Source: a virus
Lineage: Duplodnaviria; Caudoviricetes
Direction: 5' to 3' (one strand)
Virus record (IMG/VR): IMGVR_UViG_3300029288_000079
Location: 1-64,000 of that record
DNA length: 64,000 bases
A model generated the notes under the pieces. That model was given only the letters and a program-made list of their open reading frames with translations, searched no databases and was not told the origin of the DNA. How positions within the stretch are numbered: position 1 is the first letter of the stretch; each line of letters opens with the position of its first letter. The position numbers were made by a program, and so were the translations under genes. Shown piece by piece: positions 12,800 through 39,404 of the stretch.

Positions 12800-12819
12800 A
12801 CCTGCCCCTAAAAATAAAA

Positions 12820-12900: not shown

Positions 12901-12919
12901 AAATACATACCAACCTATA

Positions 12920-13528: not shown

Positions 13529-13555
13529 TTTGTATCTCCTTAATTAAGTTATTTA

Positions 13556-13756: not shown

Positions 13757-13759
13757 ATC

Positions 13760-13975
13760 TCAATCCTCCACTTCTATTGTTATCTTATAAACTTTGCCTA
13801 TCTGAAGTTTTGTACCATCTTCTAAAGTAGAACCCCAATTAGACCATCTTGGAACAAGACTAATACAATATTGACCTTCATTAGATATCATTAAAACTTT
13901 CTCATCTACGCTTTTAATCTCCTCACAACAGGATTTGTATTCAGCTTCTGCATATGTTGTTATTGTTCTAGGCAT
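13760..13975 (-). CDS. hypothetical protein
   Basis: 71-aa ORF. Confidence 0.55.
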   Translation of the reverse strand: MPRTITTYAEAEYKSCCEEIKSVDEKVLMISNEGQYCISLVPRWSNWGSTLEDGTKLQIGKVYKITIEVED

Positions 13976-14588: not shown

Positions 14589-14606
14589 ATTTTATCCTTT
14601 AATTAA

Positions 14607-14737
14607 TGAGTACTTGGCAGTTGATCTGCGATTGATTAGACTAACCGAAGAATTTATGATTTCTCGAGCTAATCTCAATTTTATAAGCTGCTGTCAATAT
14701 AAAATCATTTATCAGACTATCACGTCACAAGTACTCA
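14607..14737 (-). ncRNA. multi-stem structured intergenic RNA downstream of recA
   Basis: Perfect 10-bp closing IR TGAGTACTTG/CAAGTACTCA; internal stems TTTTATA/TATAAAA and GATTAGCTCGAGAA/TTCTTCGGTTAGTC. Confidence 0.5.
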
Positions 14738-14744
14738 CCATTAT

Positions 14745-17051
14745 TTATCCAAATAATATTTTTTCAGTTTCTTTTTGTATAGCTTCCTGCAATTCAGGTT
14801 TATCCAATAGAAACTCCTTTACTGAATCAATACCCTGACCAATTTTGTCCTCTTTATAACTATACCAACTACCTGATTTTTGTATAACATTTCTTTCAAC
14901 AGCAATATTTACTAAATCTGTTAAAAAGTCAATACCTTTACCAAATATAATCTCAACTAAAGCCTCTCTAAAAGGAGGTCCAACTTTATTCTTTACTACC
15001 TTAATCCTATTCTTGCTACCTACAACTACTGAATTTTTATCCTTCATAAACTCTATGCGTCTTACATCTATACGAATTGAGGCGTAAAACTTCAAAGCAT
15101 TTCCTCCTGTAGTAGTTTCATTAGATCCAAACATAACACCAATTTTAGAATTATGTGTTAAAAATTGATTTGCTATAAATAATTTATCACCCTCTACTTC
15201 TATATCAAAAGCTTCAAATTCTACATTTTCTATATCCATAACCTGACAAAATCTATTAGATACTAAAAACTCTCTCTCTATATCAAAGCCTTCCCCAATA
15301 AACTCTAAAAAATAGGATAATCCCAATCTACTACAATTTAATTTTTTGAATAGGCACATCTTATAAGCTTCATAATATCTAAGTTTAGATATATTTTTTA
15401 TACCCTTATCTTTAACTTTATTAAATAAATTTAAAGCATATTCATAAGGTACTACATCATACTTTCCTCGAGCTGTCAGGTCATATTCAAATATTTTACA
15501 TTTATCCTGTTTAGTAATCTCAGCAAACCCTATAATAGAGGAAAATTTTAAAGCATCCTGCCCCGTTATATATAATCGGTTAAACCAGTCACAGTCATCC
15601 TTTCTAATATCAGCAAATATTCCCAAATAATATAATACATTAGCTATTTGAATTGTTGATTCACTATTTTCATTAGTAAATATAAACCCTCCTTTAGTGA
15701 ATCCATGAGTATCAAAAAATACACCCCTTAAAAAAGATATTATAACAGATCTTTTTGATTTCAATATTATATCAGGTATAGTTTTATATTTACCATATCT
15801 TTTTATACCTAAATTTTTCATAAATTGAACAAGATATTTTCCAGTTACAGATATATATTCAGGAGTCCCATATACGTTATCTTTACCAAATATTTTATTG
15901 CACATATCTAAAACTAACTTATGTCTCTCTTTATTTTTCTCTGTAAAAGAAATTCTATAATCTCCGGATTCAGGAGATTCCAATATATAACCATCAGAAT
16001 AGTAACAACCTAAAAAAAAGGCGAAATCCTCATCTAGATTATTAGGAAGTTTCATCCTCTTTGTATTATTGTTAACTTTAATATCATTGATATATTCAAA
16101 TAAACTGATGTAAGATTTATTATCTAAAATTGAGTTTTCCTTTACTATGGGCTGAATAAACCAATCTCCTATTTGAACCTCAGTAGCTTTTTTAAAGGTG
16201 TATTTTCCATTAGATATAATGGGCTGTTTATGATTGTTACTTAAATCAAAATAACCTCTATATTTCAAATATAATCTTTTGCCACCCATCACACCAGAAC
16301 TTATTTTATTAATTATAACATTAGAATGATTTCCACAGCCTAATACGTGGGATCCTAAACTCGCAGACTTTAAATGTGTTAAAGACCCATCGCAAAGTAA
16401 CAACGTGTTCTCTGGAAGACACCTTAGTTGATTAATGAATATTAAAATAGTCTTTGACTTTGCAACAACACTTACCAACTTTCTTAGTGCTTGACCCATC
16501 ATACGAGCTTGAGCACCCATTTGAGCATCCCCAAATTCCCCCTCTATCTCGCTTTTTGGAGTAAGTGCTGCAACCGAATCTACTACTATTACATCTATAG
16601 CACTGCTTCTAACTAACTCTTCAACTATTGTAAGACCCTGCTCTCCGTAGTCAGGTTGAGATAAAAGCAAATCCTCAACATTTACACCTATATTTTTAGC
16701 ATAATTTAAATCCATGGCATTTTCAGCATCTACATAAGCACAAATACCCCCCAATTTCTGTGCTTGAGCTACTATTTGCATGGCTAATGTGCTTTTACCA
16801 GAACCCTCTGGGCCATATATTTCAACAATACGCCCTCTTGGTAATCCACCTACAACTAAAGCATAATCTAATGACATACATCCCGTAGTTATAACCGGAA
16901 CTTTATCTACTGGTTTATCCCCCAAACGCATAACAGATCCTTTACCAATATTTTTTTCAATATTTGCTAAAGCATTCTGCAAAGCTATATTCTTGTCAGG
17001 ATCTATAGCCTGTTTTTCTGGTTTTACGGGTTTAACAACTCTTGCTGCCAT
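14745..17051 (-). CDS. recA: RecA recombinase containing an intein
   Basis: [43 protein letters not shown]; 344-aa extein after intein removal. Confidence 0.97.
15150..16421 (-). mobile_element. LAGLIDADG intein (424 aa) in RecA
   Basis: Starts CLPENT, ends THN followed by Ser+1; FLGCYYSDG and [11 protein letters not shown] endonuclease motifs. Confidence 0.93.
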
Positions 17052-17134
17052 AATTATCCTTTATATTTTGTTCATGTCTAGGTTTACTTCTTTTAGCTTA
17101 TCTATCTTATATACTGTAATTACATATTATACTA

Positions 17135-17437
17135 TCAAATAGATATTCTGCTCCGATAATAAACATCATATTCTCTTATACTAAGTTTTGTAGCATGTGA
17201 AATGATTCTTGCATAGCATCCATCTTTCCTCAATTGTTCAACGATTTTCCTTGCCGACAACTCACTGTAATTGCTCACCGAATTATATTTTTTATACCCC
17301 AGCCGCTCTAATCGTTCTTCAAGTTCTTTCGTCATGTAAGCATAGTTGTGTCCTCTGTTCGCCGCCAATCTTGCCTCGTATTGACGGAATCCCCAATCAA
17401 GCCTCTGTTTGTCTGTCATTTTCTGTTTGTATCCCAT
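17135..17437 (-). CDS. hypothetical protein
   Basis: 100-aa ORF. Confidence 0.6.
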   Translation of the reverse strand: MGYKQKMTDKQRLDWGFRQYEARLAANRGHNYAYMTKELEERLERLGYKKYNSVSNYSELSARKIVEQLRKDGCYARIISHATKLSIREYDVYYRSRISI

Positions 17438-17441
17438 ATTA

Positions 17442-17747
17442 TCACTCTAAAATTCTCATTCTCTGTGCTATATACCATAAACCACCCTGATTAACTGGCC
17501 TATTAATTGACTTATATTTTTGAATCTCAACAGGAATCCATATTCTTCCCGTCTTTTTCAAATGTGGTGCATCTGGCTTTGCTAAAGTGTGCCAACCTTT
17601 ACGAGTAGAATATCCTTTTGTTGGATACTCTTTGGCTACTAACCAAATCCCTACCTGTAACTTCTCTTTTTTATTAATATATAAAGACCCCAATGAACCG
17701 TCTTTCCGTAATCTAAACAATTTATATGCTCTCATATTTCTCCTCAA
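17442..17747 (-). CDS. hypothetical phage protein
   Basis: AYKLFRLRKDGSLGSLYIN, RKGWH, QGGLW; probable ATG start at 17735 after AGGAG. Confidence 0.7.
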   Translation of the reverse strand: MRRNMRAYKLFRLRKDGSLGSLYINKKEKLQVGIWLVAKEYPTKGYSTRKGWHTLAKPDAPHLKKTGRIWIPVEIQKYKSINRPVNQGGLWYIAQRMRILE

Positions 17748-17817
17748 TGAGCTGGTGCAGGGTAAGATACTTGCCCTTCATCTATGCCCCCGCACCCGGA
17801 AGAGACTCCTCGCTCAT
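17747..17817 (-). promoter_or_regulatory. GC-rich structured 5' leader or small RNA
   Basis: ATGAGC/GCTCAT, GGTGCGGGG/CCCTGCACC and AGATG/TATCT stems directly after a TATATT -10-like box and before an RBS. Confidence 0.5.
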
Positions 17818-17857
17818 CTACAATATAATACCACTACAATTTTTAAATTTTTAAACA

Positions 17858-18142
17858 TCATAAATATCTTCCAAAACCTACCAAACTTTCCCATGCATAA
17901 TTCTTTAAGCCATTTTTGGTGTACTCTCTAATACCTACAACTTCCATTACAGTTATTTCTCCTGTCCAACAATGAATTTTATCCCGAAGCATTAGAGCAG
18001 CCCTACACACTGTAACATATTCACCACAATTTGGACACATATTACTCCCCAAAGGACTAAATTTTTCACAGCTAGCACAATAATTATAATTACTAAATGC
18101 ACCTTGCCTAACAATATATTCAAATGACCAAGGCCATTTCAT
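17858..18142 (-). CDS. zinc-ribbon protein
   Basis: CASC and CPNC motifs. Confidence 0.6.
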   Translation of the reverse strand: MKWPWSFEYIVRQGAFSNYNYCASCEKFSPLGSNMCPNCGEYVTVCRAALMLRDKIHCWTGEITVMEVVGIREYTKNGLKNYAWESLVGFGRYL

Positions 18143-18403
18143 AGTTTCACCAAAGTTGTAATTACTGTGAGAAATTTCATAAGTCTCATTTTAGCCCCAT
18201 ATTTATTTATTTAATATTATATTTGATCTCGGACAGATGCGCGTTCTCTCAGGTCTTGCAAATCTTGTCGCAATCTATATGCTGGCTTTTTTTGATTTCA
18301 CAACACAATTGTTCTAAGTCTTCTAATGCCATCACAAAATATTTGTAATCAATCTTTTTATTATGTGCCATTTCATCCTCCTACCAAAAACATAATCCTT
18401 GTA

Positions 18404-19210
18404 TTAATTAGGTATAGTATAATAAAAACTTTTATCAATATCAACTAATATCTCATTTACACTCTTATTTTTTAACGTCTCATCCGGATCCTTCCAAGGC
18501 TGCTCAGGCATACACCCAACTTTAAATCCTATATCTACAGCCATGGGGTACGACTTTATCAAAGCCTTACCTCCAGCCTCATCATCATCAAACCATAAAA
18601 CAATATTATTGCATACACGCTTAAGTATATGTAATTGCTGTAAAGTCAATGCCGTTCCACATGGGGCTACAACATTCTTTATACCAGACTGCCATAGGGA
18701 CATGACATCAATATTACCCTCAACTATAATACAGTACCCCTTATCTATAATAGATTCTAAAGCTTGTGAAAATCCGAATAATGATAACGATTTCCTAAAT
18801 ATTTGACTGTTACGGGTATTTACATATTTTGCATCCTCAGGATCTGCATCAGGCATCTTTCTACCGCTAAATGATACAATATTACCGGATACATTACATA
18901 TGGGAAATATTATACGATCATTCATAATACTGCATAATTTTGAGTCATGAATAAATATAACACCTAATTTCAATAAATCTTCTTTAACAGTTATATCTAA
19001 TAGTCTGATAAAGCTATCTATATCCATAGGTAAATAACCTATTCCAAAAGATTTTATACACTCTTGCTGTAGATTTCTTTGAGTTACATAACCTAGAGAT
19101 CTATCATAACTATACAAAGCTTCCATGGAAAGTTCGGAAAACTTTCTCATAGCTTTATAAAATTCTTCAGCTCTTTTGAGTATCGGTGCTGTTAAGTTGA
19201 CGTTGTTCAT
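18404..19210 (-). CDS. dnaG: DnaG-type primase catalytic (TOPRIM) core lacking the zinc-binding domain
   Basis: FGIGY, DRIIFPI, FSGR, KYVNT, IVEGNIDV, FDDDEAG, KDPDE. Confidence 0.9.
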   Translation of the reverse strand: MNNVNLTAPILKRAEEFYKAMRKFSELSMEALYSYDRSLGYVTQRNLQQECIKSFGIGYLPMDIDSFIRLLDITVKEDLLKLGVIFIHDSKLCSIMNDRIIFPICNVSGNIVSFSGRKMPDADPEDAKYVNTRNSQIFRKSLSLFGFSQALESIIDKGYCIIVEGNIDVMSLWQSGIKNVVAPCGTALTLQQLHILKRVCNNIVLWFDDDEAGGKALIKSYPMAVDIGFKVGCMPEQPWKDPDETLKNKSVNEILVDIDKSFYYTIPN

Positions 19211-19604
19211 TTAATATTCTTATTACCTTTTCTCCAACTGAATCTTTTCTTTTAGAATCTCTATCAATGCACTCTTGCAAAGGAGTGTTAATCCATATGG
19301 TTTCTATTTCAATATCTGATGAGATAGACTTAATAAATATAAACCACCAATCCACAGTGCTATTTTTTATATTGGTATCATCTATAACCACAGAGCAATC
19401 ATGCTTCAATAATTCTTTAACAATACTCTGCTCAATATGTTTTATGAAACTTTCATTTATCTCTGAATATACATTAAAATCCAACATCTTCCTTAGATCA
19501 TCTCTATTGATTCTTTTTGTCGCAATACTATTTACTACAAGTTCTCTAGCCTTTGTTGTTTTTCCAGATGCAGGAAGACCTCTAAGAATAATAACTTTAG
19601 GCAT
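19167..19604 (-). CDS. polynucleotide kinase-like P-loop kinase (AAA_33)
   Basis: RGLPASGKTT, INRDDLR, VIDDTN, ECIDRD. Confidence 0.85.
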   Translation of the reverse strand: MPKVIILRGLPASGKTTKARELVVNSIATKRINRDDLRKMLDFNVYSEINESFIKHIEQSIVKELLKHDCSVVIDDTNIKNSTVDWWFIFIKSISSDIEIETIWINTPLQECIDRDSKRKDSVGEKVIRILNEQRQLNSTDTQKS

Positions 19605-20031
19605 TTATTTCCTCCTTTATCTCCATTAATACAATCCCAGCCTTCATTGCATAATTATCAATTCTATCTATTCTATATGGATTTTGATAACATACAATTT
19701 TAACACCCGCACTAACCAATAATTTGAAACAAGTTAGACAAGGACTATGCGTAATATAGGCAATAGACCTATCAAGCACAACACCATTCTTTGCAGCTTG
19801 AGCCACTGCATTAGCTTCAGCATGTACTGTCCTAACGCAATGATTCAACTCATCAATGTCATGTCCCACATCATCACAATGTTCTGTATCCTTAAGACTA
19901 CCATTATATCCCGTAGATAATATGACTTTATCTCTGACAATTATACACCCAACATGAAGTCTTGAACAAGTACTTCTAGTAGCAATTTGTTTAGCTAAGT
20001 TCATAAAGTAACTATCCCAAGATTCACGCAT
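19597..20031 (-). CDS. dCMP deaminase
   Basis: RSTC, TGYNG, HAEANA, SPCLTC. Confidence 0.93.
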   Translation of the reverse strand: MRESWDSYFMNLAKQIATRSTCSRLHVGCIIVRDKVILSTGYNGSLKDTEHCDDVGHDIDELNHCVRTVHAEANAVAQAAKNGVVLDRSIAYITHSPCLTCFKLLVSAGVKIVCYQNPYRIDRIDNYAMKAGIVLMEIKEEINA

Positions 20032-20155
20032 TTGTTATCCCTTTATTTTACGATTTTTAATAATATCCATTATAATTACAATAACAAATATTATAATATA
20101 ACCTATACAAAATCTAAGCATAAACTGTGAGAATGTAAGAATACATAACATATTA

Positions 20156-21061
20156 TCACCTATATTTAAAAAATTGTTCAGGTCTAATTTTTTTCATTTC
20201 ATACAGATCGAATAATGTGTTTACTGTAGTAGGATTCTCACCATCAGCCATAGATAATCTAATAACAGGTATATCTACGCACTTAGTTAATGATATTACA
20301 GTCTTATTAATTATTAACTGTTCACGATGATCCTGTAAGACTTGCTTTATCTTTTCAGTTGCAATAATACTAAATATGTCATTAAACCAATCCTTTATGG
20401 CTCCATTCTCTTGCAATAATTTTGCAGCTGTCTTCTCACCTATGGATGGTATACCCTCAATACCATCAGAAGTATCCCCTACCAATGTTAAATAATCAGC
20501 CAACAATTCAGGTCCAACACCAAAATCCTCTGTAACTTTACTAATATTATGCACAGTATCTCCACCTGTCGTGGGAGCTATTACTTGAACATCCTTTGTA
20601 ATAAGCTGTCGTAGATCCTTATCTCCCGTAACTATAAAGGCTTTACGATCAGGGTGTAATAAAGCTGTCGTATATATAAAATGAGCTATAACATCATCCG
20701 ACTCATACCCTGTAGAGGTATATTGAGAGAACTGTATCGAGCTCAATGCAGACTTTATATCCTGTTCCTGAACCCTCAACTCCATAGGCATCGACTTCCT
20801 ATCATGCTTATACGTAGGTAAGATCTCCAATCTTTTAAGATCTGTCCTATGACTTCCCCAACATATAATATTGTTTTCAGCCCCATATCGATCTAAATAT
20901 TTAGCTAGATATGAAAAGAATCCATAAAAGGCACCACTCAGCTTACCTGTAGATGTTTTTAAAGAATTACCTGGCCTATTGAATGCAAAGTAAGATCTGT
21001 ACAATAAGTACTCACCATCTATCAATAATAACTCTGGCTTTTGTTGAAATTTAATTATCAT
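20156..21061 (-). CDS. 5'-3' exonuclease / flap endonuclease (PolA N-terminal type)
   Basis: LIDG, YKHDR, ESDDVI, TGDKDL, LVGDTSDGIEGIPSIGEKTA. Confidence 0.93.
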   Translation of the reverse strand: MIIKFQQKPELLLIDGEYLLYRSYFAFNRPGNSLKTSTGKLSGAFYGFFSYLAKYLDRYGAENNIICWGSHRTDLKRLEILPTYKHDRKSMPMELRVQEQDIKSALSSIQFSQYTSTGYESDDVIAHFIYTTALLHPDRKAFIVTGDKDLRQLITKDVQVIAPTTGGDTVHNISKVTEDFGVGPELLADYLTLVGDTSDGIEGIPSIGEKTAAKLLQENGAIKDWFNDIFSIIATEKIKQVLQDHREQLIINKTVISLTKCVDIPVIRLSMADGENPTTVNTLFDLYEMKKIRPEQFFKYR

Positions 21062-21185
21062 TTATTACCCAATCTTTATTTTCAAGTTTATCTCCAACTA
21101 CTTATCAAATGTATTACATACCATAGGCTCTCCTGAACCTGGATTACTTATAACAAATTGGCTCTCTTTTACAATAACTTCCATC

Positions 21186-21410
21186 TTATTTTATCCTTTT
21201 TAATCTAGACGAAGGGCATAATATTTGCCACCACATGCAAATAGAAGATATACAACCTAAACTTTGAAAAAACCAATATACCCCATACTTTGAAAGACCT
21301 ATGCAAATGATAGATAAAAATGCAGAGAGTAATATATATTGAATCTCATTTTTGTTCCAAAGTCCATTTGAAACCCATTCAATTGTACAAAATCCTAAAT
21401 ATAACTTCAT
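21186..21410 (-). CDS. small membrane protein
   Basis: Two hydrophobic segments. Confidence 0.55.
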   Translation of the reverse strand: MKLYLGFCTIEWVSNGLWNKNEIQYILLSAFLSIICIGLSKYGVYWFFQSLGCISSICMWWQILCPSSRLKRIK

Positions 21411-22195
21411 ATATTCTGTCCTGGAAATGAATAAAAATGTTTTGTCAAAATATCTTGAGTTAATCTATCTATGGCCTCTAGATTAGGCTTGTCCGGTAAT
21501 TGAGAGCAAGTATATGCTAACTCCATGTCTTTAAATAACTGCATAGCCTCCTTCTTTACCTTATCTATGCTCCACTGACCAGTTTTTATCTGTATTAATT
21601 CAGATCTATCTTGTCTTTCAACCTCTAATTCACCTGTCTTCAAAAATTCTATACCCTGCCGTAATAATCTAATCATATGGGAAGAATTTTTACAATCAAA
21701 ACCAAATTTATTTATCAATGCTTTACGTTTTTCACCAAGATATCCTTCACATGCCATATGCTCCATCTTTTGAAGTTGACCGTAAGAATATCCACAGAAT
21801 GATTTATACAAACCTCTGTGAACAAATAAATGTCTGTTTTCCACAAGCATTTTGAACTGCCATGATGTTTTTAAAATATGCTTTTCCGGAGTCCAAAGGG
21901 CCTGCATTACATTTGGATTGGCTTTGGATAATAGCCTAATAAACTTTTTAAAATCATATACTAATACATCCCAGTAATCTTGCTTAACCTCAAACTGTTC
22001 AAATTGTTTTAATCCAAAAAAATACTCTTCTGTAGGTATTGCAATTCCTAAAATATCTTTATCATCTATTGAACTTGGCTCATGATTAGGAATAAATGTA
22101 CCATGAGCTATACTACCTCTATAACACAAAAGTATAGACTGATTCCACATATTAAATTGCGGAGCATTATTCAGTATTTTGTTTAATAATCTCAT
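21407..22195 (-). CDS. Pol-beta superfamily nucleotidyltransferase (RlaP/YcgL-like)
   Basis: RGSIAHG, DDKDILG, NPNVMQALW, HMIRLL. Confidence 0.85.
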   Translation of the reverse strand: MRLLNKILNNAPQFNMWNQSILLCYRGSIAHGTFIPNHEPSSIDDKDILGIAIPTEEYFFGLKQFEQFEVKQDYWDVLVYDFKKFIRLLSKANPNVMQALWTPEKHILKTSWQFKMLVENRHLFVHRGLYKSFCGYSYGQLQKMEHMACEGYLGEKRKALINKFGFDCKNSSHMIRLLRQGIEFLKTGELEVERQDRSELIQIKTGQWSIDKVKKEAMQLFKDMELAYTCSQLPDKPNLEAIDRLTQDILTKHFYSFPGQNI

Positions 22196-22207
22196 TTATA
22201 ATTACAG

Positions 22208-22281
22208 TAGCGGGGGTGTGACTTGAACACACGATCTTTTGGTTATGAGCCAAACGAGATGACCATCTTCTCTACCCCGCC
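22208..22281 (-). tRNA. tRNA-Met(CAT), initiator-like
   Basis: Cloverleaf GGCGGGG/CCCCGCT; D-stem with A11-U24; anticodon arm TTTGG-CTCATAA-CCAAA; T-loop TTCAAGT; CCA not encoded. Confidence 0.93.
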
Positions 22282-22287
22282 AAACTT

Positions 22288-22521
22288 TTAGTTAGCTTTT
22301 GTAAGATCTAAATAATATTCCTTTCCAACTTCAAACACATCTTCCTTATATTGCCCGATTTCAAGACTGCCTACGGGAGTACATTCAAAGAATTTCTTAT
22401 TTTCTTCACTGCCATCCATAACTGGCGACATTTTTGCCACATATATGAAAACATCTTTATTATTCCATGCTATTCTTTTAATAACTTCAATACATTTATA
22501 TTTTGCACGTACCATAACCAT
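22288..22521 (-). CDS. hypothetical phage protein
   Basis: VRAKYKC, EENKKFF-TPVG, GKEYYLD; AAGGAG RBS. Confidence 0.7.
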   Translation of the reverse strand: MVMVRAKYKCIEVIKRIAWNNKDVFIYVAKMSPVMDGSEENKKFFECTPVGSLEIGQYKEDVFEVGKEYYLDLTKAN

Positions 22522-22548
22522 CTCCTTATACTTTAATAAATTTATAAT

Positions 22549-24234
22549 TTAGCCTTGCTGTGATGCCATCATTTTCTCAAATTCAGCTTTCTCCTCAGGA
22601 GACTCAACAACTACACCCTCGGTAGTTAAAAATAGCCCGGCAACACTTGCAGCATTTTCTAAGGCACACCTTACAACTTTGGTTGGATCTATAACACCTG
22701 TAGCCATTAAATCCTCAAATTTGTCTGTCAAGGCATTATAACCATAACTATCAGGATAATGTAGGTTTCCACCTATTAAAATATTAGGTATTTCTCCACT
22801 GTCCTTTATATAATCAGGATTGTAAATTTTATCTAAAATTACCTCTCCATTTTTACCTGCATTTTGAACAATAGTAAATAATGGTGTTTCCAGGGATTTG
22901 TATATTATCGCACGACCTGTTTCAAAATCCTTAGAATTGGATTTATTCTCCACTAAAAGAACGTCTCTGCTACGAATATAAGCAGTTCCACCACCCGGAA
23001 CTATACCCTCTTCAACTGCGGCTCGAGTAGCATGTAATGCATCCTCAACACGAGCCTTCTTTTCATTTATCTCAGCCTCAGATGCTGCACCCACACGTAA
23101 TATGGCCACCCCACCCGATAATTTAGCCAGACGTTCCTCAAGCTTCTGTTTATCGAACTCAGATGGTCCCATATCGATCATATTACGTATCTGCTGGATT
23201 CTTTCTTGCAAGGCTTCCTGAGACCCCTTACCACCAATTAAAGTAGTGCTATCACGAGTAACAGTAACTTTGTCAACTGACCCGAGATCATTAAGAGTTG
23301 CATTTTTAAGAGATGGACCAAATTCATCATTTAACACCTTGCCACCTGTTAATATAGCGATATCCTTCAAAATATCCTTTCTTCGATCACCAAACCCAGG
23401 TGCTTTAATAGCACAGACAGGAATCTGTGCTTTAACACGATTTACAACCAATGTTTTCAGAGCATCACCTTCAACATCTTCTGCAATAATAAGCATTGGT
23501 AGATTTTTTTGCAATGCTGAGTTTAATAATCCTACTAAATCCGCTGGATTAATCAATCTACCCTCGTATATCAGTACCCCACACTTCTCATAAACTGTAT
23601 CGAATGTAGCCATGCGATTGATAAAATATGGTGATAGATATCCACGATCTAATACCATACCTTCCACATAATCAATATAAGTTTTAAAAGTCTCAGAGGT
23701 CTCAATAGTAATGACACCATCGTTACCAACCTTCTCCATCGCATCAGCAATAAGATTACCTATCTCAGAATCATTATTAGAAGATATTGTCCCAACCTGA
23801 ATTACCTCCTCTTTAGTTGAAACTTTCCTTGATAATTTCTTCAATCTATTTACAACCTCTAATACAGCTGAATCTATCCCACGTTTTATCTCAACAGGAC
23901 TAGAACCTGCTGTAACACTCTTTATCCCCTCTGCAATAATTGCTTGAGCTAATACAGTAGCTGTAGTTGTTCCGTCTCCAGCTGTCTCTGCTGTCTTGGA
24001 TGCAACTTGCTTAATCAATTGAGCCCCCATATTTTCAACTACATCTTTTAAGAAAATCTCTTTTGCTACAGTCACACCATCTTTCGTAATCATGGGTCCA
24101 CCATACTTCTTATCTAAAATAACATTTCTACCCTTTGGACCCAATGTTACCTTCACCATCTTTGCTAATGCATCTACACCCTTCTTAAGTCTTTCTCTAG
24201 CTTCCTCATTATACAGCAAAATTCGTGATTCCAT
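22549..24234 (-). CDS. groEL: chaperonin GroEL
   Basis: VTLGPKGRNV, AGDGTTTAT, APGFGDRRK, VIDPTKVVR. Confidence 0.97.
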   Translation of the reverse strand: MESRILLYNEEARERLKKGVDALAKMVKVTLGPKGRNVILDKKYGGPMITKDGVTVAKEIFLKDVVENMGAQLIKQVASKTAETAGDGTTTATVLAQAIIAEGIKSVTAGSSPVEIKRGIDSAVLEVVNRLKKLSRKVSTKEEVIQVGTISSNNDSEIGNLIADAMEKVGNDGVITIETSETFKTYIDYVEGMVLDRGYLSPYFINRMATFDTVYEKCGVLIYEGRLINPADLVGLLNSALQKNLPMLIIAEDVEGDALKTLVVNRVKAQIPVCAIKAPGFGDRRKDILKDIAILTGGKVLNDEFGPSLKNATLNDLGSVDKVTVTRDSTTLIGGKGSQEALQERIQQIRNMIDMGPSEFDKQKLEERLAKLSGGVAILRVGAASEAEINEKKARVEDALHATRAAVEEGIVPGGGTAYIRSRDVLLVENKSNSKDFETGRAIIYKSLETPLFTIVQNAGKNGEVILDKIYNPDYIKDSGEIPNILIGGNLHYPDSYGYNALTDKFEDLMATGVIDPTKVVRCALENAASVAGLFLTTEGVVVESPEEKAEFEKMMASQQG

Positions 24235-24273
24235 GCTTCCTCCAATTATTATATTATTTTTTACTGTGTTTGT

Positions 24274-24462
24274 TTATTTTTTTCTTTCTTTCATAAATAT
24301 ACGAGCAGATTCATATTCTTCTTCAGTAATCTGTAATGAATAAATTATATTTGTTGTCCTGCCTAATGTTCTTTCGATAAGAAGAAATTTATTAATAAAA
24401 CCCTCATACCAAATTGTAGAAAAATTACCATCTCTTTGAACTGTAAGAATATAATATTCCAT
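24274..24462 (-). CDS. hypothetical protein
   Basis: 62-aa ORF. Confidence 0.5.
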   Translation of the reverse strand: MEYYILTVQRDGNFSTIWYEGFINKFLLIERTLGRTTNIIYSLQITEEEYESARIFMKERKK

Positions 24463-24468
24463 TTATTT

Positions 24469-24651
24469 CTATTTCCTTATATTATGCTTTTTATAATAAT
24501 TCTCTTTCACTCTCTTACATAAATTTTCAATCTCCTCACATCTTTTTTTACTATTACCGATCAAGCAATGTATACCTACGTCATAATTAGAACCCATAAC
24601 ATCCAACAATGCACTTTCAAGTTCTTCGATATAATCACTTTGATCACCCAT
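24469..24651 (-). CDS. hypothetical protein
   Basis: 60-aa ORF with GAGGA RBS. Confidence 0.55.
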   Translation of the reverse strand: MGDQSDYIEELESALLDVMGSNYDVGIHCLIGNSKKRCEEIENLCKRVKENYYKKHNIRK

Positions 24652-24658
24652 GACTTCC

Positions 24659-25216
24659 TCACATGTTTATTCCAATAAACTTACAAAACTTTTCAAACAT
24701 ATTCTTGTCTACAAAAAAAGCGAATCCATTATCCAACTCTAGCCATCCTAGGTTTCTCCGAGCATACCCATCACTCTCCACATTTTTCTTATCAAAGTAT
24801 TCTTTTAAACCACAATGTTCTTTAAGATCAATTTTTTTATCCATTCTATAAAGCTGACTGATTCTCCTTCTGACCTCTTCTTCGTAAGGAATAGGACATA
24901 CATAATATACTATCTTATCCTTATTAAAAATAATTTTAAATGCCACTAAGTTATTCTTACTACTCTGCTCTGCCAAAAATGACAATGCATTTGGTACTGC
25001 TCCCCATTCAAACTCAGCAGACCCCATATAATCAAATGACCAAATACTTCGAAGAAGATTCATATCATCCTTAGAGAGACCCCCATTTATAAGACCTCCA
25101 CCAAATGAAAATGGATTGTCTTTAGAAATACCTATGCCTGAAGAAGGCTTTTGAAGCCTTTGAATTAAATGTGATCTTTTAAGCTCTTTTTGCAGTGAAA
25201 GTGGACTATCAAACAT
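24659..25216 (-). CDS. hypothetical phage protein
   Basis: 185 aa; FDYMGSAEFEWGA motif. Confidence 0.7.
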   Translation of the reverse strand: MFDSPLSLQKELKRSHLIQRLQKPSSGIGISKDNPFSFGGGLINGGLSKDDMNLLRSIWSFDYMGSAEFEWGAVPNALSFLAEQSSKNNLVAFKIIFNKDKIVYYVCPIPYEEEVRRRISQLYRMDKKIDLKEHCGLKEYFDKKNVESDGYARRNLGWLELDNGFAFFVDKNMFEKFCKFIGINM

Positions 25217-25596
25217 TATTTTTCCCTTTCTATTAATTGTAACTCTTTCTTAAACCTTTCTATTTCGAGAAGTATGCTACGTTTATATAATTTTACACAA
25301 TGAGCAATTAGCTTATCAACATCCTTTTCAATCTTAATGTCAAAAATATTATTTAAAGAGTCATTAGCCCATGGTTGTAATTTTACAATCCAATTTTTAG
25401 TAGTATTTTTACCCGAATTATACTTACATATTCTACCATTGAATTCATATCTAAAGGAATCTAATCCCTTACTTATATAAAAAGGAAAACTAAGATAATC
25501 ATCAAATACTACCTCTTGATGATCTCCATTATCAGGATAATTCTTAATATTTCTTAGTCTATATTTTATAGGCATACTTATACTCCTACCCTTCAA
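25216..25596 (-). CDS. hypothetical protein
   Basis: ORF coupled (TAATG) to the next gene. Confidence 0.6.
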   Translation of the reverse strand: MKGRSISMPIKYRLRNIKNYPDNGDHQEVVFDDYLSFPFYISKGLDSFRYEFNGRICKYNSGKNTTKNWIVKLQPWANDSLNNIFDIKIEKDVDKLIAHCVKLYKRSILLEIERFKKELQLIEREK

Positions 25597-33817: not shown

Positions 33818-34132
33818 TTATACACCTGTACCCATTATTTTACTCGATATAGACTCTAAAAAATTCTGTTTATTTTCTCTAACTTTTGGATATTTTTTCC
33901 AATGTTGCACCAGTCCATCAAACATCTTCTGTACACCCTCATTTGTATTAATACCTGTAAATGTAGCTACTCGCCCATCCGGAAGTAATGACATAAACAA
34001 AAATTCTTCACATATATTTAAACATTCTTTTATACGTACTTCCTGGATATCTTTATTTTGCTCATCATATATCTCATAAAATGATGGGGAATATTTCATA
34101 TCTGGCAGTTTCACCCCTGGAATTTTTTCCAT
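33818..34132 (-). CDS. hypothetical protein
   Basis: 104-aa ORF. Confidence 0.6.
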   Translation of the reverse strand: MEKIPGVKLPDMKYSPSFYEIYDEQNKDIQEVRIKECLNICEEFLFMSLLPDGRVATFTGINTNEGVQKMFDGLVQHWKKYPKVRENKQNFLESISSKIMGTGV

Positions 34133-34133
34133 A

Positions 34134-34370
34134 TTAAAATTCTCCTGTTAACCAAACCCTTATAATTCTAGAGTCATTTTCATTACTTTTCTTTTTTAAG
34201 GATATAGATTCTCCATAGCATGTTATAGTAACCTCATCATTATAAAAAGTTATACTACAAAATCCTGCTGATTTAATATCAGATCTCATACATGCCTCAG
34301 AATGCTTTTGACATGTATCAAACAATATAAAAGAGTTATCCTCAAATATTATATATTTTAATTCTCTCAT
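34134..34370 (-). CDS. hypothetical phage protein
   Basis: SAGFC and CYGESISL motif. Confidence 0.65.
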   Translation of the reverse strand: MRELKYIIFEDNSFILFDTCQKHSEACMRSDIKSAGFCSITFYNDEVTITCYGESISLKKKSNENDSRIIRVWLTGEF

Positions 34371-34744
34371 AGTTTTTTAAAAAAATCCTCTTTATATAAT
34401 TCATTTCGCATAGCTATAAAATAATCATTAGTTAATTTAGGATAATCCTGATATATATGATACACCTTTTCACTTACAATACTTCCAAATACAGGGACAA
34501 ACTTGTTCTTAAGAAAATATTCAGAAAATAGAGTATCAATAAAACACTTATAATCTTGATTTGATAATCTAAGCTTCATCCTAAACCCTTTCATCCTGGA
34601 CAAATAAGCTCTCCAAGCCACTGGAGGAATTACCAATCCACCATTCCCAGCCCTCTTCAAACAATCTGAAAAATATAAAAGAAAATCCCTATTACTCCAT
34701 TGCTCTAAAGGCTTTACTTCAGATTCCTTTAAAAGTAATTTCAC
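34367..34744 (-). CDS. hypothetical protein
   Basis: 125-aa ORF with coupled start and stop. Confidence 0.65.
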   Translation of the reverse strand: MKLLLKESEVKPLEQWSNRDFLLYFSDCLKRAGNGGLVIPPVAWRAYLSRMKGFRMKLRLSNQDYKCFIDTLFSEYFLKNKFVPVFGSIVSEKVYHIYQDYPKLTNDYFIAMRNELYKEDFFKKL

Positions 34745-34938
34745 TTGGGCCTTTCTATGTTTGTCATTACAATTTTTTTACAATGATCCAACTTAATATC
34801 TCTAATGCCCCCCTTATCCAAATGAATTTCACCCTCAGCAGTAACTAATAAAGACAGCATATCGTTACCAATGAATTCTCTTACAATGCCATGTAGTACT
34901 GTGCCATTCTTTAAAGTAACTTTTGTTTGCATCAGCAT
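34741..34938 (-). CDS. small protein, possibly Sm/LSm-like fold
   Basis: KVTLKNGTVLHGIV beta pattern. Confidence 0.5.
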   Translation of the reverse strand: MLMQTKVTLKNGTVLHGIVREFIGNDMLSLLVTAEGEIHLDKGGIRDIKLDHCKKIVMTNIERPK

Positions 34939-35094
34939 ATTAAATTCCTTTTCATTATTCTATCTCCAAAATAAAAATAAAAACTGCAAATCGTTACCAT
35001 GTTTTATAGATTCAACCAACTCTGAGTATCCATTATCATTTTCCCTTCTATTTATTACTCAATTCAGCGTTCTATGTACTTACATGTTATGTCG

Positions 35095-35562
35095 TCATTG
35101 CTCATTTTTAGATACGCTTTGTGGCACTTCTTTTTCCGCTAAGAATTTTTGGATTATCTCTTCAACCTTTTCACCTACTGGATCACTCGTGTACCAACGA
35201 ATAAGTTTCCCAATCTTAGAGGCATAGTTCACCTCGTTTGTCGTGCTTTTCCCGATGTAATCATTTCGGTTCACAACAAACACTTCATCACAATCATCAA
35301 TCTTGCGGAAGTGTAATTCATCCATCGCGGTTGCAACGCTTTCGTGTTCGGCGATATGGTCAGGGATTCCCCTTGCATACCATATCGGCAATAAATGAAG
35401 TCCATTTGTTATTTTGTGTTCATCGCGCTCTATGAACCATGCACAAACAGCCATCACATCCACAAATCTTGAAGAACCACACATTACAACTCGTTTTGGT
35501 TTTTCCATATTTTCCTCAGTGCCACAAAGCGTTAAAAGTAGATGCAATGCGAACATAACCAT
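35095..35562 (-). CDS. cassette-borne nucleoside deoxyribosyltransferase-like / DUF4406-like protein
   Basis: MCGSSRF, HFRKIDDCDEVFVVN, YIGKST-NEVNYA. Confidence 0.6.
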   Translation of the reverse strand: MVMFALHLLLTLCGTEENMEKPKRVVMCGSSRFVDVMAVCAWFIERDEHKITNGLHLLPIWYARGIPDHIAEHESVATAMDELHFRKIDDCDEVFVVNRNDYIGKSTTNEVNYASKIGKLIRWYTSDPVGEKVEEIIQKFLAEKEVPQSVSKNEQ

Positions 35563-35952
35563 GTGGCCAAGCTGACCGAATCAGCCAAATGCAAAATTCA
35601 TTGAGTTAAACGCCCTTCAAAATCAGTCTGCAAATGTCTTGTACTAATTCCTCTTCTGCCATTCTCAATTCTTTTATTTTTCTTTTATCCATTCTTGTTA
35701 ATGCCCTTAAGGCAGAGTGAAGCAATTCATGTATTAAAAAGTCCTTCGGTTCTTTTGTCTTTGTTCCCCATCCATAAATTATTGATCGTTTATTCCTCGG
35801 ATGAATAGAACATTGCGCTCCATACTTACTTGCACATTGGTATGTTATTTTCCAGTCTTGTAATATTCTCAGTTGGCTCTTTAGGGCGTTTAACTTTTTC
35901 TTACTCATTTTGAACGTTTCTCCTTCGGCAGTTTAGCAACCATCCGTTACGC
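35553..35952 (+). repeat. attC-like site 1 (400 bp, whole ORF nested in the loop)
   Basis: ACATAAC...GCCAAGCTGACCGAA paired with TTCGGCAGTTTAGC...GTTACGC. Confidence 0.65.
35606..35908 (-). CDS. HExxH zinc-metalloprotease-like protein nested in the attC loop
   Basis: LIHELLH and EEELV motifs. Confidence 0.65.
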   Translation of the reverse strand: MSKKKLNALKSQLRILQDWKITYQCASKYGAQCSIHPRNKRSIIYGWGTKTKEPKDFLIHELLHSALRALTRMDKRKIKELRMAEEELVQDICRLILKGV

Positions 35953-36113
35953 GGTCGCGGTAAAGCGTGCAATTGCTTCAATTTTTTTACACACTTTCTT
36001 TTCTCAACTGTCCAGAATTTTATACAACTGTTAGCTAAGGCAATCTCTCTCCGTGCGGTTTTGATAGTTTTTTTTCTCTTTTCTATCTTATTCATCTTAA
36101 ATTCCTTTCGCAA
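35901..36113 (-). CDS. small basic cassette protein
   Basis: C-terminus RNGWLLNCRR is encoded by the attC right arm. Confidence 0.55.
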   Translation of the reverse strand: MRKEFKMNKIEKRKKTIKTARREIALANSCIKFWTVEKRKCVKKLKQLHALPRPRNGWLLNCRRRNVQNE

Positions 36114-36203
36114 TTACATGCTCACTAAAATGTTAATTGATTTATTTGTAAACATTTTCCTGCTTAACGAAAAAGTTCTCGTTTTGTCCATTGTCATAAT
36201 TTC

Positions 36204-36521
36204 CTATAAACTATTTTTATCTTCATCCATTAATGTGCCGGTAGAATCAATACGCTGGATAGGTATTATTGTGCCGAATATTTTGCTAATTTCTTCTTTG
36301 GATGAATAATAGTAATCACTTATTGCCATATTCCCGAATAGACTATTATATACCCAGCGATATTTCATTACTTTCTTTTTAGGCATAGTAAACGTCTCTT
36401 CTTTTTGACCGACGAATTGCCATAAGGAAGGGCCTCCTTCTACATGCGCTCTATCATCTTCTGAATTAGGTGTTACATAATGGTAAAGCCCATTTCTATG
36501 TAAATATGCATTTACTAACAT
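36204..36521 (-). CDS. hypothetical protein
   Basis: 105-aa ORF with AAGGAG RBS. Confidence 0.6.
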   Translation of the reverse strand: MLVNAYLHRNGLYHYVTPNSEDDRAHVEGGPSLWQFVGQKEETFTMPKKKVMKYRWVYNSLFGNMAISDYYYSSKEEISKIFGTIIPIQRIDSTGTLMDEDKNSL

Positions 36522-36772
36522 GGTATTTCTCCTTTAATTGGTTCATTAATTCTTGCCAAAAGCCATAGCAATCCACTAATTATCAACATTGCTCCACAAC
36601 TCGACCAATGATCTATTTTCATTTCTACACTTATGTTGCCGAAAGACCATATCAGCGTTTCTATGGCTACGGATACACCCATAAATATCATTCCATATAA
36701 GAAAGAAATTATTCTGTGTTCGTTTAGTTCCATAATGTTCTCTGTTCGCAAAAAATATAACCAAAGTTTCAA
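36515..36772 (-). CDS. small membrane protein
   Basis: Two hydrophobic helices. Confidence 0.6.
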   Translation of the reverse strand: MKLWLYFLRTENIMELNEHRIISFLYGMIFMGVSVAIETLIWSFGNISVEMKIDHWSSCGAMLIISGLLWLLARINEPIKGEIPC

Positions 36773-36839
36773 GTTGACCGAATCAACTTGCGTTTTTTAT
36801 TCTAACCTTTCAGCACGGCAGCTTAACCATCCGTTAGAC
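36755..36839 (+). repeat. attC-like site 2 (85 bp, canonical size)
   Basis: ATATAAC-CAAAGTTTCAAGTTGACCG paired with CGGCAGCTTAACCATCC-GTTAGAC. Confidence 0.8.
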
Positions 36840-36847
36840 ATATGTGC

Positions 36848-37195
36848 TCACAGTCCCGCTATAACGCATTCGTCACACACCCGCGTTTTGCCTGTATCAC
36901 TTCTGTCTTGTTGATTTACTACATATCCATAACTCGATCCACAGACATCACAAGTATGTGCCGGACAAAACGCTATGTGCGGTTGTCCTAATTCGTATTC
37001 CACTCCACAGTCAGGACACTTCGTTAATCGCGCACTGCCTAACACGTTGCTCAAGCTGACTGGCGTCAGCTCGTTTTTGTTAAGTATTTTTTCTATTAGG
37101 TCGGCAGCGTCGTAATATCCATTTCGGTTTGCTAAATCCATTGTGCTTCGTAATTGTTCGGTTAAACTTCTTTGGTCATTCATGTCTTGTCGCAC
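36848..37195 (-). CDS. Cys-rich zinc-finger cassette protein translated through an attC arm
   Basis: CPDC, CDVC, CDEC; segment PVSLSNVLG is encoded by the attC 3 left arm. Confidence 0.65.
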   Translation of the reverse strand: MRQDMNDQRSLTEQLRSTMDLANRNGYYDAADLIEKILNKNELTPVSLSNVLGSARLTKCPDCGVEYELGQPHIAFCPAHTCDVCGSSYGYVVNQQDRSDTGKTRVCDECVIAGL

Positions 37196-37242
37196 TTTAT
37201 TTCCTTTCTGTTTACGCCAGCAGCTTCGCTTAATCGTTGGGT
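37037..37242 (+). repeat. attC-like site 3 (206 bp)
   Basis: GCCTAACACGTTGCTCAAGCTGACTGGCGT paired with ACGCCAGCAGCTTCGCTTAATCGTTGGGT. Confidence 0.8.
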
Positions 37243-37250
37243 GGACGCGA

Positions 37251-37433
37251 TCAATAATCTTCTTTTATGCGTTCATATCGTTCATCCAGTTCCAGAAGGA
37301 CTATAAGTTTATCAATTATTTCTTTCCTTCCAGTTCGTTTACCATTTTCAAACATTGAAAGTTCTCGTTTTGTCCATTGTTTTACTTTTATAGGCTTTAA
37401 TTTTCCCATCTTTTCCTCCAACCAGCAACTCAA
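37251..37433 (-). CDS. small cassette protein (probable start MGKLKP)
   Basis: GGAGG RBS is supplied by the attC R'' box. Confidence 0.55.
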   Translation of the reverse strand: MSCWLEEKMGKLKPIKVKQWTKRELSMFENGKRTGRKEIIDKLIVLLELDERYERIKEDY

Positions 37434-37545
37434 GCTGACGTGATGAGCGTTTTACGTTCTTCCGTTTCAGTTGTAATTCATTATCATATCGGTATTCATT
37501 CATGCTTCAAGTCTTTTCCATGTGCAGTTTATGTTGCCGTTAGGC
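37416..37545 (+). repeat. attC-like site 4 (130 bp)
   Basis: CTCCAACCAGCAACTCAAGCTGACGTG paired with TGTGCAGTTTATGTTGCCGTTAGGC. Confidence 0.75.
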
Positions 37546-37761
37546 TGGTGGCACTTCTCTGTACAAGCTCGCAATCAATAACCTATCCTCGTGTTTCGGG
37601 TTTTCTTTTTCGTCATTAACCACTGCAAACCAAGTGCCTGCAAATTTTTCCAGTCGCACAAATTTAACAGGGCAAGTACCATACCATAGCACTGTACCTT
37701 TTTTCATAAATCTTGCGTCCTTAAATTTCATCGCTGTTCTCCTTTTTATAAAATGTGCCAC
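37540..37761 (-). CDS. small cassette protein (probable start MKFKDA)
   Basis: AAGGAG RBS; TAA stop lies within the attC R' box. Confidence 0.6.
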   Translation of the reverse strand: MAHFIKRRTAMKFKDARFMKKGTVLWYGTCPVKFVRLEKFAGTWFAVVNDEKENPKHEDRLLIASLYREVPPA

Positions 37762-37762
37762 C

Positions 37763-37875
37763 GCCTAATACGGCTTCAACTTTGACAGAATTAGCTTTGG
37801 TACGTTTGTCCATATCTTTTGATTTTTTCATTGATTCGCTCCCCTCCTGTTAGTAGTTTGCATATTGTATCGGCT
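37763..37875 (+). repeat. degenerate attC-like site 5
   Basis: GCCTAATACGGCTTCAACTTTGACAG paired with CTGTTAGTAGTT; R' eroded. Confidence 0.5.
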
Positions 37876-37880
37876 TATCA

Positions 37881-39404
37881 TCATCCTAGTTCCTTTGCTA
37901 ATTCTTCTAATGTGCATTTGCTTACGTCACGTTCTATTAACTTAAACTCAGGCTCCGACTTATAAATCTCCAATCTCCTTTTAGAATGCTTTGAAATATA
38001 CCTAACATCATGATAAAAGTCAATAATTCCACAAGATATTTTTCCTTCTGCAGCCGTGATAGATCTCATACGCTGTAATGTAGAAATACTACTCAATCCT
38101 CCGGCAGCATTTATAGTAAAATCTAAACTTAACAAATCTATACCCTCCTCAAACAATGTTGATATACAGCACATAATCTTTTTTTCACGTATTTTTTGAA
38201 TAACATCAACTCTTCTATCAGTCTTATCTTTTCCAGTCAAAACTACAGAATTTTTTATGGCCTTGTGCAAAACATTGGCATGATAAATTGTATCAGTTTG
38301 TATAATCACAGACTTATTATTATTATTCAAAGACATAACCAGTAAATTAATTAAACCTATAAAAAATTTATTTTCAACTACTGCTTGTTTATAAACTGTA
38401 GGATATGCTGCATCAATATCAAATTTTGGTAATTTATAAAAATATATTGTAGGACGTAATAAAAAACCCTCTCTAATAAGCTCTGAATATGTTACAGTAT
38501 GAATTATATCACCAATAGCTTCTTCTACCAACATATCTTCATCTTTATCTGCAAAAGGAGTAGCTGTTAGACCTATCTTTAATTCCGCATTAGTACATTT
38601 ACTCAGTACAAATTTACTCGTATTTGATAAACTATGATGAGCTTCGTCATAAAACACTAATTTAGCTTTTTTAAGTAATATTTGAATTAATATTTTTTGT
38701 TTCTTTTCTATTGAAAGCTCTTTATCTAGATCTTTTTCTTTTATTTCCTTACTATAAGCCGAAAAAGCACTTTGAACAGTAACTATAGTTATATCCTGTA
38801 TATCTACTTTACCATCCCCTACAATGCCTACAGTTATATCAGGAAGAAACTGATGAACTCTATCCAAAGTCTGATAAGCAAGATCTAAACTTCTACAGAA
38901 AAATACCACAGGAAATTTACGTTCCGAGTCCACTATCGCAATAAACATCAAAGTTTTACCTGACCTCATAGGTGCTTTTAAAATTCCAAAACGTTTTTCT
39001 ACACAACTTTGAGCTGCCAATAATTGATATGGTCTCAATTCATAAGTATTAGATTTTTGTACAAACTGCTCGGAACGAGGTTTATCAATAACATTAACCT
39101 CACAGCCATGTTTCTGCAATATATTAATAACTCTATTTAAAAGACCTACACGAAATGTTTTTGTTTTGGCATGATAGAGATGGTACTGACCATCCCATTG
39201 ATGATTTTGAAATTTTGGTGAGAAAAAGTAATTTTCAGCGTAAAAAGAAAGTTCATTATATATTATTGCTTCTAATTCTGTAGGAAGTTCTGTAAGAAAC
39301 CTGCACCACACAGAATAGAATTGTATATCTACTATAATATTAAACTGTTGATCTATGTCTTCAGAAATCTCTTCATGAAATATATCAACATCTATTTTTA
39401 CCAT
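37881..39404 (-). CDS. superfamily 2 DNA helicase (UvsW-like)
   Basis: LRPYQ, APMRSGKT, DEAHH, GLTATP, EEGID. Confidence 0.9.
   Translation of the reverse strand: MVKIDVDIFHEEISEDIDQQFNIIVDIQFYSVWCRFLTELPTELEAIIYNELSFYAENYFFSPKFQNHQWDGQYHLYHAKTKTFRVGLLNRVINILQKHGCEVNVIDKPRSEQFVQKSNTYELRPYQLLAAQSCVEKRFGILKAPMRSGKTLMFIAIVDSERKFPVVFFCRSLDLAYQTLDRVHQFLPDITVGIVGDGKVDIQDITIVTVQSAFSAYSKEIKEKDLDKELSIEKKQKILIQILLKKAKLVFYDEAHHSLSNTSKFVLSKCTNAELKIGLTATPFADKDEDMLVEEAIGDIIHTVTYSELIREGFLLRPTIYFYKLPKFDIDAAYPTVYKQAVVENKFFIGLINLLVMSLNNNNKSVIIQTDTIYHANVLHKAIKNSVVLTGKDKTDRRVDVIQKIREKKIMCCISTLFEEGIDLLSLDFTINAAGGLSSISTLQRMRSITAAEGKISCGIIDFYHDVRYISKHSKRRLEIYKSEPEFKLIERDVSKCTLEELAKELG

Follow-up and report, generated by a model that had tools for sequence, protein, structure and literature searches.

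The window analysed here comprises the first 64 kb (positions 1 to 64,000) of a Caudoviricetes phage genome, IMG/VR record IMGVR_UViG_3300029288_000079 (hereafter G000; 181,733 bp, 100% complete by CheckV), which has a G+C content of 33% and carries 208 of its 220 open reading frames (ORFs) on the minus strand. At 35553-35952 lies a 400-bp element, here called site B, in which two partly complementary arms enclose an intact minus-strand ORF of 100 amino acids (aa; 35606-35908) with the HExxH sequence LIHELLH. The initial annotation had described an attC-like site, of the kind found in integrons, with a complete gene inside its terminal loop, and both arms do lie where it placed them, with the sequence it quoted, on either side of the whole ORF: AAGCTGACCGAA (35569-35580) and TTCGGCAGTTT (35924-35934) form five base pairs, leave one A unpaired and then face each other over six positions with one mismatch. 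Taken alone, these segments of 11-12 nt show weak complementarity; a gap-tolerant alignment extends it to the outer ends of the element, ACATAAC (35553-35559) and GTTACGC (35946-35952). The duplex formed by the flanks of the ORF has a predicted energy of -19.7 kcal/mol, compared with -9.3 +/- 3.7 kcal/mol for 3000 equally spaced segment pairs from the window, 1.1% of which were as good.

The bottom strand of an attC site carries an R' box (5'-RYYYAAC) and an R'' box (5'-GTTRRRY), an unpaired spacer of 5-6 nt, two extrahelical bases opposite the AAC arm (a G at about position 16 and a T at 23-24, with a 6-bp stem between them) and then a variable terminal structure, the total length being 57-141 bp (PMC5027507). 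Read on its minus, gene-sense strand, site B presents these parts in order: R' ending in AAC, a 5-nt spacer, the stems, an unpaired T after the 6-bp stem, and R'' beginning with GTT. As AAC is part of the 5' arm and the unpaired bases are found on the other one, the gene strand is the bottom strand of the site. The R' box is GCGTAAC (35946-35952), and the rest of the 5' arm (35926-35945) consists of the spacer GGATG, the stem segments GTTGCT and AAACTG, and CCG. The loop of about 345 nt that follows begins with a ribosome-binding site, AAGGAG (35920-35925), 11 nt before the ATG at 35908, continues with the ORF, which thus lies wholly within the variable terminal structure, and ends with a further 25 nt. 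The 3' arm (35553-35578) then reads CGG (35578-35576), the unpaired T (35575), CAGCTT (35574-35569), a G (35568), GCCACA, TG and the R'' box GTTATGT (35559-35553). The R boxes retain AAC and GTT and form five Watson-Crick and two G·T pairs; the stem AAACTG/CAGCTT, after which T 35575 is unpaired, comprises five pairs and one A·C; and the spacer GGATG, whose pattern GG.TG is invariant in the family described below, faces two to three unpaired nucleotides on the 3' arm. Within the loop, a perfect 13-bp inverted repeat marks the two ends of the gene, one arm (AGGGCGTTTAACT on the plus strand, 35883-35895) falling in codons 5-9 of the ORF and the other (35604-35616) covering its last codons, the stop codon and 2 nt beyond; the two arms pair in both predicted folds.

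That the arms of site B belong to a family of recombination sites was revealed by a sequence pattern derived from its 5' half, which retrieved two further phage contigs, G001 (49 kb) and G002 (59 kb). Both contain sites built on the same plan, with stems that differ in sequence and whose arms complement each other; on the gene strand these read ..TAAC, GG.TG, 6 nt, 6 nt, CCG, loop, CGG, T, 6 nt, G, 6 nt, TG, GTTA... Scanning for the structure identified eight clean sites in G001 (L020/L021; array at 9491-21759, minus strand) and ten in G002 (L023/L024; array at 15444-25295, plus strand), after one AT-rich chance match in G002 was dropped. The sites are about 125 bp long, are spaced 0.4-1 kb apart and mostly end in sequences of the GGCTAAC...GTTAGCC type, and the inner unpaired T and outer unpaired G are present in 18 of 18. 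RNAalifold applied to 15 of them recovered the double-bulged stem, 14 of its 16 pairs showing compensatory changes; none of 500 shuffles reached the observed values, and slid controls scored far lower. The scan itself required pairing, though it did not require the identities of the bulged bases, the end boxes, the uniform loop length or the clustering.

Profiles of the two arms, built by sequence alone and only from the G001 and G002 sites, matched both arms of site B. The 5' arm (35950-35921, which includes most of the R' box) gave an nhmmer E-value of 2.2e-5, unsurpassed in the 181.7-kb genome, while that for the 3' arm (35585-35554) was 1.3e-4; both matches are on the minus strand, 5' before 3', with no third arm match between them. 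Since both arms match profiles derived from other phages, we regard site B as more than a chance arrangement. From TAAC to CCG its 5' arm is identical at 24 of 24 positions to a clean G002 site (24786-24910), and the roughly 12 nt (TTGGCTGATT) preceding its 3' arm match the end of the loop in the G002 site at 23428. In addition, the genome contains exactly two copies each of an 11-mer (TGATTCGGTCA) and a 12-mer (TAACGGATGGTT), one copy next to the ORF and the other in intergenic sequence near 36.8 kb; the halves flanking the ORF are therefore homologous to those of a compact element of 85 nt (36755-36839).

This compact element is one of four further sites that, together with site B, form an array of five (E, C, D, A and B, in that order), all on the minus strand, and site B closes it. 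A covariance model built from the G001 and G002 sites only (R1) scored the best preserved of them, site C (37416-37545; R' box GCCTAAC), at 56.2 bits (E 1.2e-10; 3' arm E 1.3e-6), and the compact site A (36755-36839; 35-nt loop) at 40.5 bits (E 5.6e-7), with nhmmer matches to both arms. Site D (37037-37242) scored 21.5 bits (E 0.016); its loop of about 150 nt takes in the beginning of a 115-aa zinc-ribbon gene, up to about codon 45, and its 3' arm is translated as PVSLSNVLG. Site E (37784-37874) is an eroded remnant of which the loop part alone matches (24.1 bits; E 0.004 across the genome, 1.5e-4 locally). For site B the model returned two half-site matches only (E 0.8 and 5), because it cannot bridge a 345-nt loop, a result in keeping with the earlier suggestion that standard detectors would miss such sites. 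All sites in G000 are eroded and none passed the strict structural scan; the alternation of 5' and 3' arms is nonetheless unbroken along the array. Every array ORF in the window and in G001 and G002 lies on the bottom strand, the opposite of the canonical cassette polarity, in which a top-strand ORF stands upstream of its own attC.

Searches with PF00589 and TIGR02249 found no match anywhere in G000, and PF00589 found none in the G001 and G002 records (controls were positive in each case); nor was an intI gene with an attI site, as in a complete integron, found beside the array in G000. Lacking a tyrosine recombinase or integron integrase, the G000 array is therefore a CALIN, a cluster of attC sites without an integrase. 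CALINs have already been reported in virulent phages, and five of six phage attC sites assayed in that study were recombined by IntI1 (Qi et al., 2023; PMC9892861).

Comparison with bacterial integrons supports the identification of these sites as attC. The G001 and G002 sites, at about 125 bp, agree in every point with the published definition (PMC5027507). A stringent two-arm pattern retrieved 102 bacterial stretches, nearly all of 121-127 nt, many from Burkholderiales and others from Ignavibacteriota, Bacteroidota and further phyla; an integron integrase scoring above the TIGR02249 cut-off was present in all seven genomes tested from this set and in none of 14 controls. On a Rubrivivax chromosome the R1 matches lie 22-43 kb upstream of intI, and on an Ignavibacteriota chromosome eight matches lie within 15 kb upstream of intI on the intI-sense strand, with the cassette ORFs mostly on the strand opposite to these sites. 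This is the canonical arrangement, and it confirms the modelled strand as the bottom strand. Geometry, homology to sites beside bacterial intI and membership in an array thus bear out the initial annotation of an attC-type site, and we consider the attC reading of site B supported at the level of sequence.

Site B and its relatives share much with the attC sites of sedentary chromosomal integrons, which are about 120-130 bp long and resemble the VCR type: the same arm family (TAACG..TAAGCTGC ... GTCAGCTTG..GGTTAGGC), R boxes, a spacer, unpaired G and T 6 bp apart opposite AAC (the G being doubtful in site B), and arrays in one orientation. They differ in the loop, which measures 60-79 nt in 242 of 377 bacterial sites and about 345 nt, with a whole gene, in site B; where Burkholderiales loops could be aligned, they are GC-rich and form a self-paired hairpin, unlike the loops of the phage sites, A-rich sequences in which shared motifs such as ACGGA keep to no single reading frame. 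They differ also in setting, as chromosomal sites adjoin intI and have their ORFs on the top strand, whereas site B is eroded and lies in an integrase-less genome with bottom-strand genes. The structural scan produced large-loop hits in bacterial arrays as well; these were cross-pairs of neighbouring sites with near-identical arms and were set aside as uninformative. Two of the bacterial genomes, the Ignavibacteriota chromosome with eight sites upstream of intI (G006) and a Bacteroidota metagenome-assembled genome (G007), had more than 100 model matches each among 150 candidates scored, in several regions besides the one beside intI, and appear to carry very large or multiple cassette arrays. 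One contig of the latter (C33), with three phage-type sites that score 96-106 bits, may derive from a phage and have been binned with the bacterium. It is plausible that bacteria of the Ignavibacteriota or Bacteroidota type serve as hosts and as suppliers of the integrase.

The gene enclosed by site B encodes a member of a protein family about 100 aa in length; a search at E<=1e-3 gave 238 homologs, up to about 55% identical to it. In an alignment of 62 sequences H60, E61 and H64 are invariant, and E85, E86, D91 and C93 nearly so. The AlphaFold model of the product (pLDDT 94.8) has its best fold matches, at Z 5-6.8, in TTHA0227, the SprT domain of Spartan, Wss1, HtpX, selecase and abylysin, which suggests a small zincin-like hydrolase fold, although Z-scores in this range fall short of proof of kinship. 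With minigluzincins and other minimal zincins (selecase, abylysin, jannalysin, SprT/Wss1, TTHA0227) the product shares a length of about 100 aa, an invariant HExxH and a downstream helix with conserved acidic residues, and its predicted fold consists of three strands and two long helices; unlike them, it is linked to the group by a predicted fold and has no significant sequence match to its members. No family was found for it in Pfam or PHROG, Foldseek returned no match against the PDB at E<=1e-3, and the best relative in a PDB profile search, projannalysin, was not significant (E 0.45). Viral-contig and word-based protein searches with the 100-aa ORF returned the query alone, and blastn of positions 34000-38000 against 50,697 phage records gave no match; an identical protein is encoded on three other contigs.

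The initial annotation had raised the prospect that homologs elsewhere would also be bracketed by paired arms, had named a consistent lack of such arms as a refutation, and the prospect was not borne out. At 12 other phage loci that encode homologs, no flanking arms or attC sites were present: none had a site with the TG bulges or a covariance-model match at E<=1, and flank scores were ordinary, with a single p value of 0.01 (L008). Since the homologs lack arms and attC sites, the ORF and the site are not an old unit, and the gene probably entered site B recently and did not travel with it. Phages reached through neighbouring genes (L002-L005) are distant ones, and their gene order is not conserved.

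Translation signals inside attC loops are common in the related phages. In 12 of 19 of their sites the loop contains an ATG from which an ORF of at least 40 aa, and of up to 302 aa, runs on across the 3' arm and beyond R'', and the ribosome-binding site and ATG of site B occupy the place in the loop that these signals usually take. Loops of 186 and 197 nt occur as well, with longer N-terminal coding stretches. The closest counterpart to site B is the G001 site at 10209-10764, in which 15 of 15 arm positions pair, both unpaired bases are present and the loop extends to 512 nt; within it a perfect 14-bp inverted repeat closes off two ORFs of 62 and 75 aa, with ordinary loop sequence retained on either side of the insert.

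Inverted repeats around genes are a further feature of these regions. In G001 and G002, perfect inverted repeats of at least 13 nt lie almost all in or beside the array regions, and several bracket genes. In G000, next to site B, a 47-nt inverted repeat with about 89% identity (35082-35128 and 35518-35564, with a perfect 15-mer inside) brackets a minus-strand gene of 137 aa (35095-35508); it is the best gene-flanking repeat among the 220 ORFs, with a score of 47 against a control maximum of 30. One arm starts in the R'' box of site B, and the far arm ends, on the gene strand, in an R'-like ACATAAC. Repeats that bracket genes in this way would, in an excised circle, make the attC stem longer or, in single-stranded DNA (ssDNA), loop out the gene.

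Taken together, these data lead us to favour, as the probable explanation of 35553-35952, a single eroded attC of integron type whose loop, enlarged to about 345 nt, accommodates a complete zincin-like gene. We prefer one site because the alternation of arms is unbroken, the ribosome-binding site and ATG are in their usual place, the end of the loop matches that of another phage's site, a 13-bp repeat joins the ends of the gene, and the G001 site at 10209-10764 provides a second case. Several observations weigh against this interpretation. At 400 bp the element falls outside the 57-141 bp range of attC lengths, and each of its R boxes departs from the consensus at one position. Prediction of the bottom strand's fold as ssDNA, suggested as a check at the outset, gave a structure for the 400 nt whose stability did not exceed that of shuffles (z about -0.7 for both strands), and a local hairpin, GGCTGA-TTCGG-TCAGCT (35570-35586, minus strand), uses the 3'-arm stem and competes with the long-range pairing of the arms. 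The extrahelical G may have been lost, as G 35568 can pair as G·T in a register with 13 of 15 pairs, as opposed to 11 of 15 with the canonical G bulge. The earlier assertion that the arms pair specifically with each other holds to a moderate degree: 11-13 of 15 stem positions do pair, a count that lies between the 12-15 of cognate arms in the family and the mean of 10.0 (sd 1.6) of non-cognate arms. The absence of arms around the homologous genes counts on the same side, as does the lack of an integrase gene in G000 and its two relatives.

Chance complementarity in an AT-rich genome, by which the inverted repeat at the ORF would have no history as a recombination site, is refuted in practice, and we accord it hardly any probability. 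It draws on the finding that the arm repeat of site B, although third among about 215 genes, remains inside the range of controls, which score equally high (scoring was permissive and the controls non-complementary), so that complementarity alone does not decide the matter; perfect inverted repeats, too, are plentiful, with 16 of at least 13 nt in G000 and as many of at least 12 nt as in the control (47 versus 47), which diminishes the significance of the 13-bp repeat. The independent profile matches to both arms, the 24 of 24 identical positions in another phage and the membership in an array are at odds with such an origin. A more serious competitor, which we nevertheless judge unlikely, holds that the two arms are orphan halves of separate attC sites of the same family, between which a deletion or illegitimate recombination left an ordinary cassette gene. 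The residual pairing would then reflect parts that are conserved throughout the family (AAnCTG/CAGnTT, CCG/CGG, AAC/GTT), and the 11-13 pairs of site B do overlap the range of non-cognate arms, about 5% of which reach 13 and about 40% reach 11; moreover, the 3' arm of site B pairs equally well with its own 5' arm and with that of site A (11 pairs each), and every site in G000 is eroded. Against a fusion of halves, no remnant of the absent arms was detected between or beside them at E<=10, the 5'/3' alternation along the array is intact, the translation signals sit where a normal loop has them and a normal loop end precedes the 3' arm, and the G001 site at 10209-10764 is a single site with matched arms around 512 nt and two ORFs.

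The arms could also act chiefly in mRNA, as hairpins around ribosome-binding sites and start codons that control translation or processing, with integron ancestry as mere history. We rate this as a very improbable account of the arms' main role, though it is compatible with a single site that holds a gene in its loop. That every gene of the arrays is carried on the bottom strand, that 12 of 19 sites in the related phages open reading frames in their loops that continue through the 3' arm, that loop motifs are conserved without a fixed frame and that gene-bracketing inverted repeats concentrate in the arrays would all suit a function in RNA. Such a function leaves unexplained the AAC and GTT ends and the unpaired G and T 6 bp apart, which are the features that an integrase reads; no Rfam family matched at E<=1, and the sole mismatch of the 47-nt repeat is C·A in the mRNA sense and G·T on the other strand. 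A transposon or miniature inverted-repeat transposable element was considered as well and rejected, as the arms are unique in G000 except for the other attC sites and no direct repeat flanks the ends.

If site B is or was a single functional attC, its movement can be envisaged as follows. In the single-stranded bottom strand the arms would fold into the R and L boxes, while the 13-bp repeat at the ends of the ORF would zip up most of the loop and draw the arms together; an integrase provided by the host would cut in the AAC of R', and the moving unit would carry the gene inside its own recombination site. A role of the loop as cargo space, as the initial annotation proposed, is plausible on the sequence features described, and the mismatches in its arms suggest that site B itself may be a relic that no longer recombines. 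A broader generalization is rather doubtful and we put it forward tentatively: that the loop is regular coding space in phages of the G000 type, most sites contributing a ribosome-binding site and start codon and a few containing one or two whole genes closed off by a short perfect inverted repeat, and that the integrases of their hosts, if they still recombine such sites, would trade such units.

Clusters of attC in phages are already known; a whole gene within an attC loop, and genes antisense to the canonical polarity with translation starts in the loop, are new. The phage CALINs described previously likewise comprise attC arrays in phages without an integron integrase, with sites predicted by standard tools, and the accessible part of that report does not mention a gene inside a loop (PMC9892861). 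The arrays of G000, G001 and G002 (5, 8 and 10 sites) instead run antisense to the usual gene polarity and have gene starts in their loops. Work on synthetic attC sites offers a further parallel, in that structure takes precedence over sequence and a site may consequently overlap coding sequence; the sites of that study were designed and of normal size, whereas site B is natural and has a whole gene in its loop (Nivina et al., 2020; PMC7439510).

These observations bear on how integron cassettes are mapped. Cassette-mapping tools are built on the assumption that an attC is short (57-141 bp), non-coding and located after a gene, and the phage family breaks with this in three respects, having translation signals in the loop, whole genes in the loop (in at least two cases) and antisense genes. 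Should such sites still recombine, cassette surveys would undercount, the size limit of the ssDNA substrate would be much larger than thought, and phages without an integrase could trade genes directly with the integrons of their hosts. If this is the case, phages and the very large chromosomal integrons of the Ignavibacteriota or Bacteroidota kind would exchange units with a gene inside the site that current detectors would miss.

Several minor features of the locus may be added. A 70-aa basic ORF (35901-36113, minus strand) crosses the 5' arm of site B, so that R' and the stems encode RNGWLLNCRR, and it overlaps the start of the HExxH gene by 8 nt (ATGAGTAA); as this ORF spans R', a crossover there would alter its C-terminus. 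On the other side, the 137-aa protein (motif CGSSRFVDVMAVCAW..ERDE) belongs to no Pfam or PHROG family; three phage contigs (L002-L004) that are unrelated and differ widely in G+C content encode homologs 61-65% identical to it; the downstream arm of the 47-nt repeat encodes its non-conserved C-terminal tail. A hairpin with the TTCGG loop seen in the 3' arm of site B is also present in site A (36768-36788), with a compensatory change in its stem (GCTGA/TCAGC versus GTTGA/TCAAC). Finally, a perfect inverted repeat of the form TAAATGC(A/C)GTGC ... GCAC(T/G)GCATTTA recurs in the related phages and encloses 160-430 nt with small ORFs; copies lie at 10257-10270/10700-10713 in G001 and at 21952-21964/22227-22239 and 26005-26017/26178-26190 in G002, one of them inside an attC loop, and they may represent a second kind of gene-bracketing palindrome.

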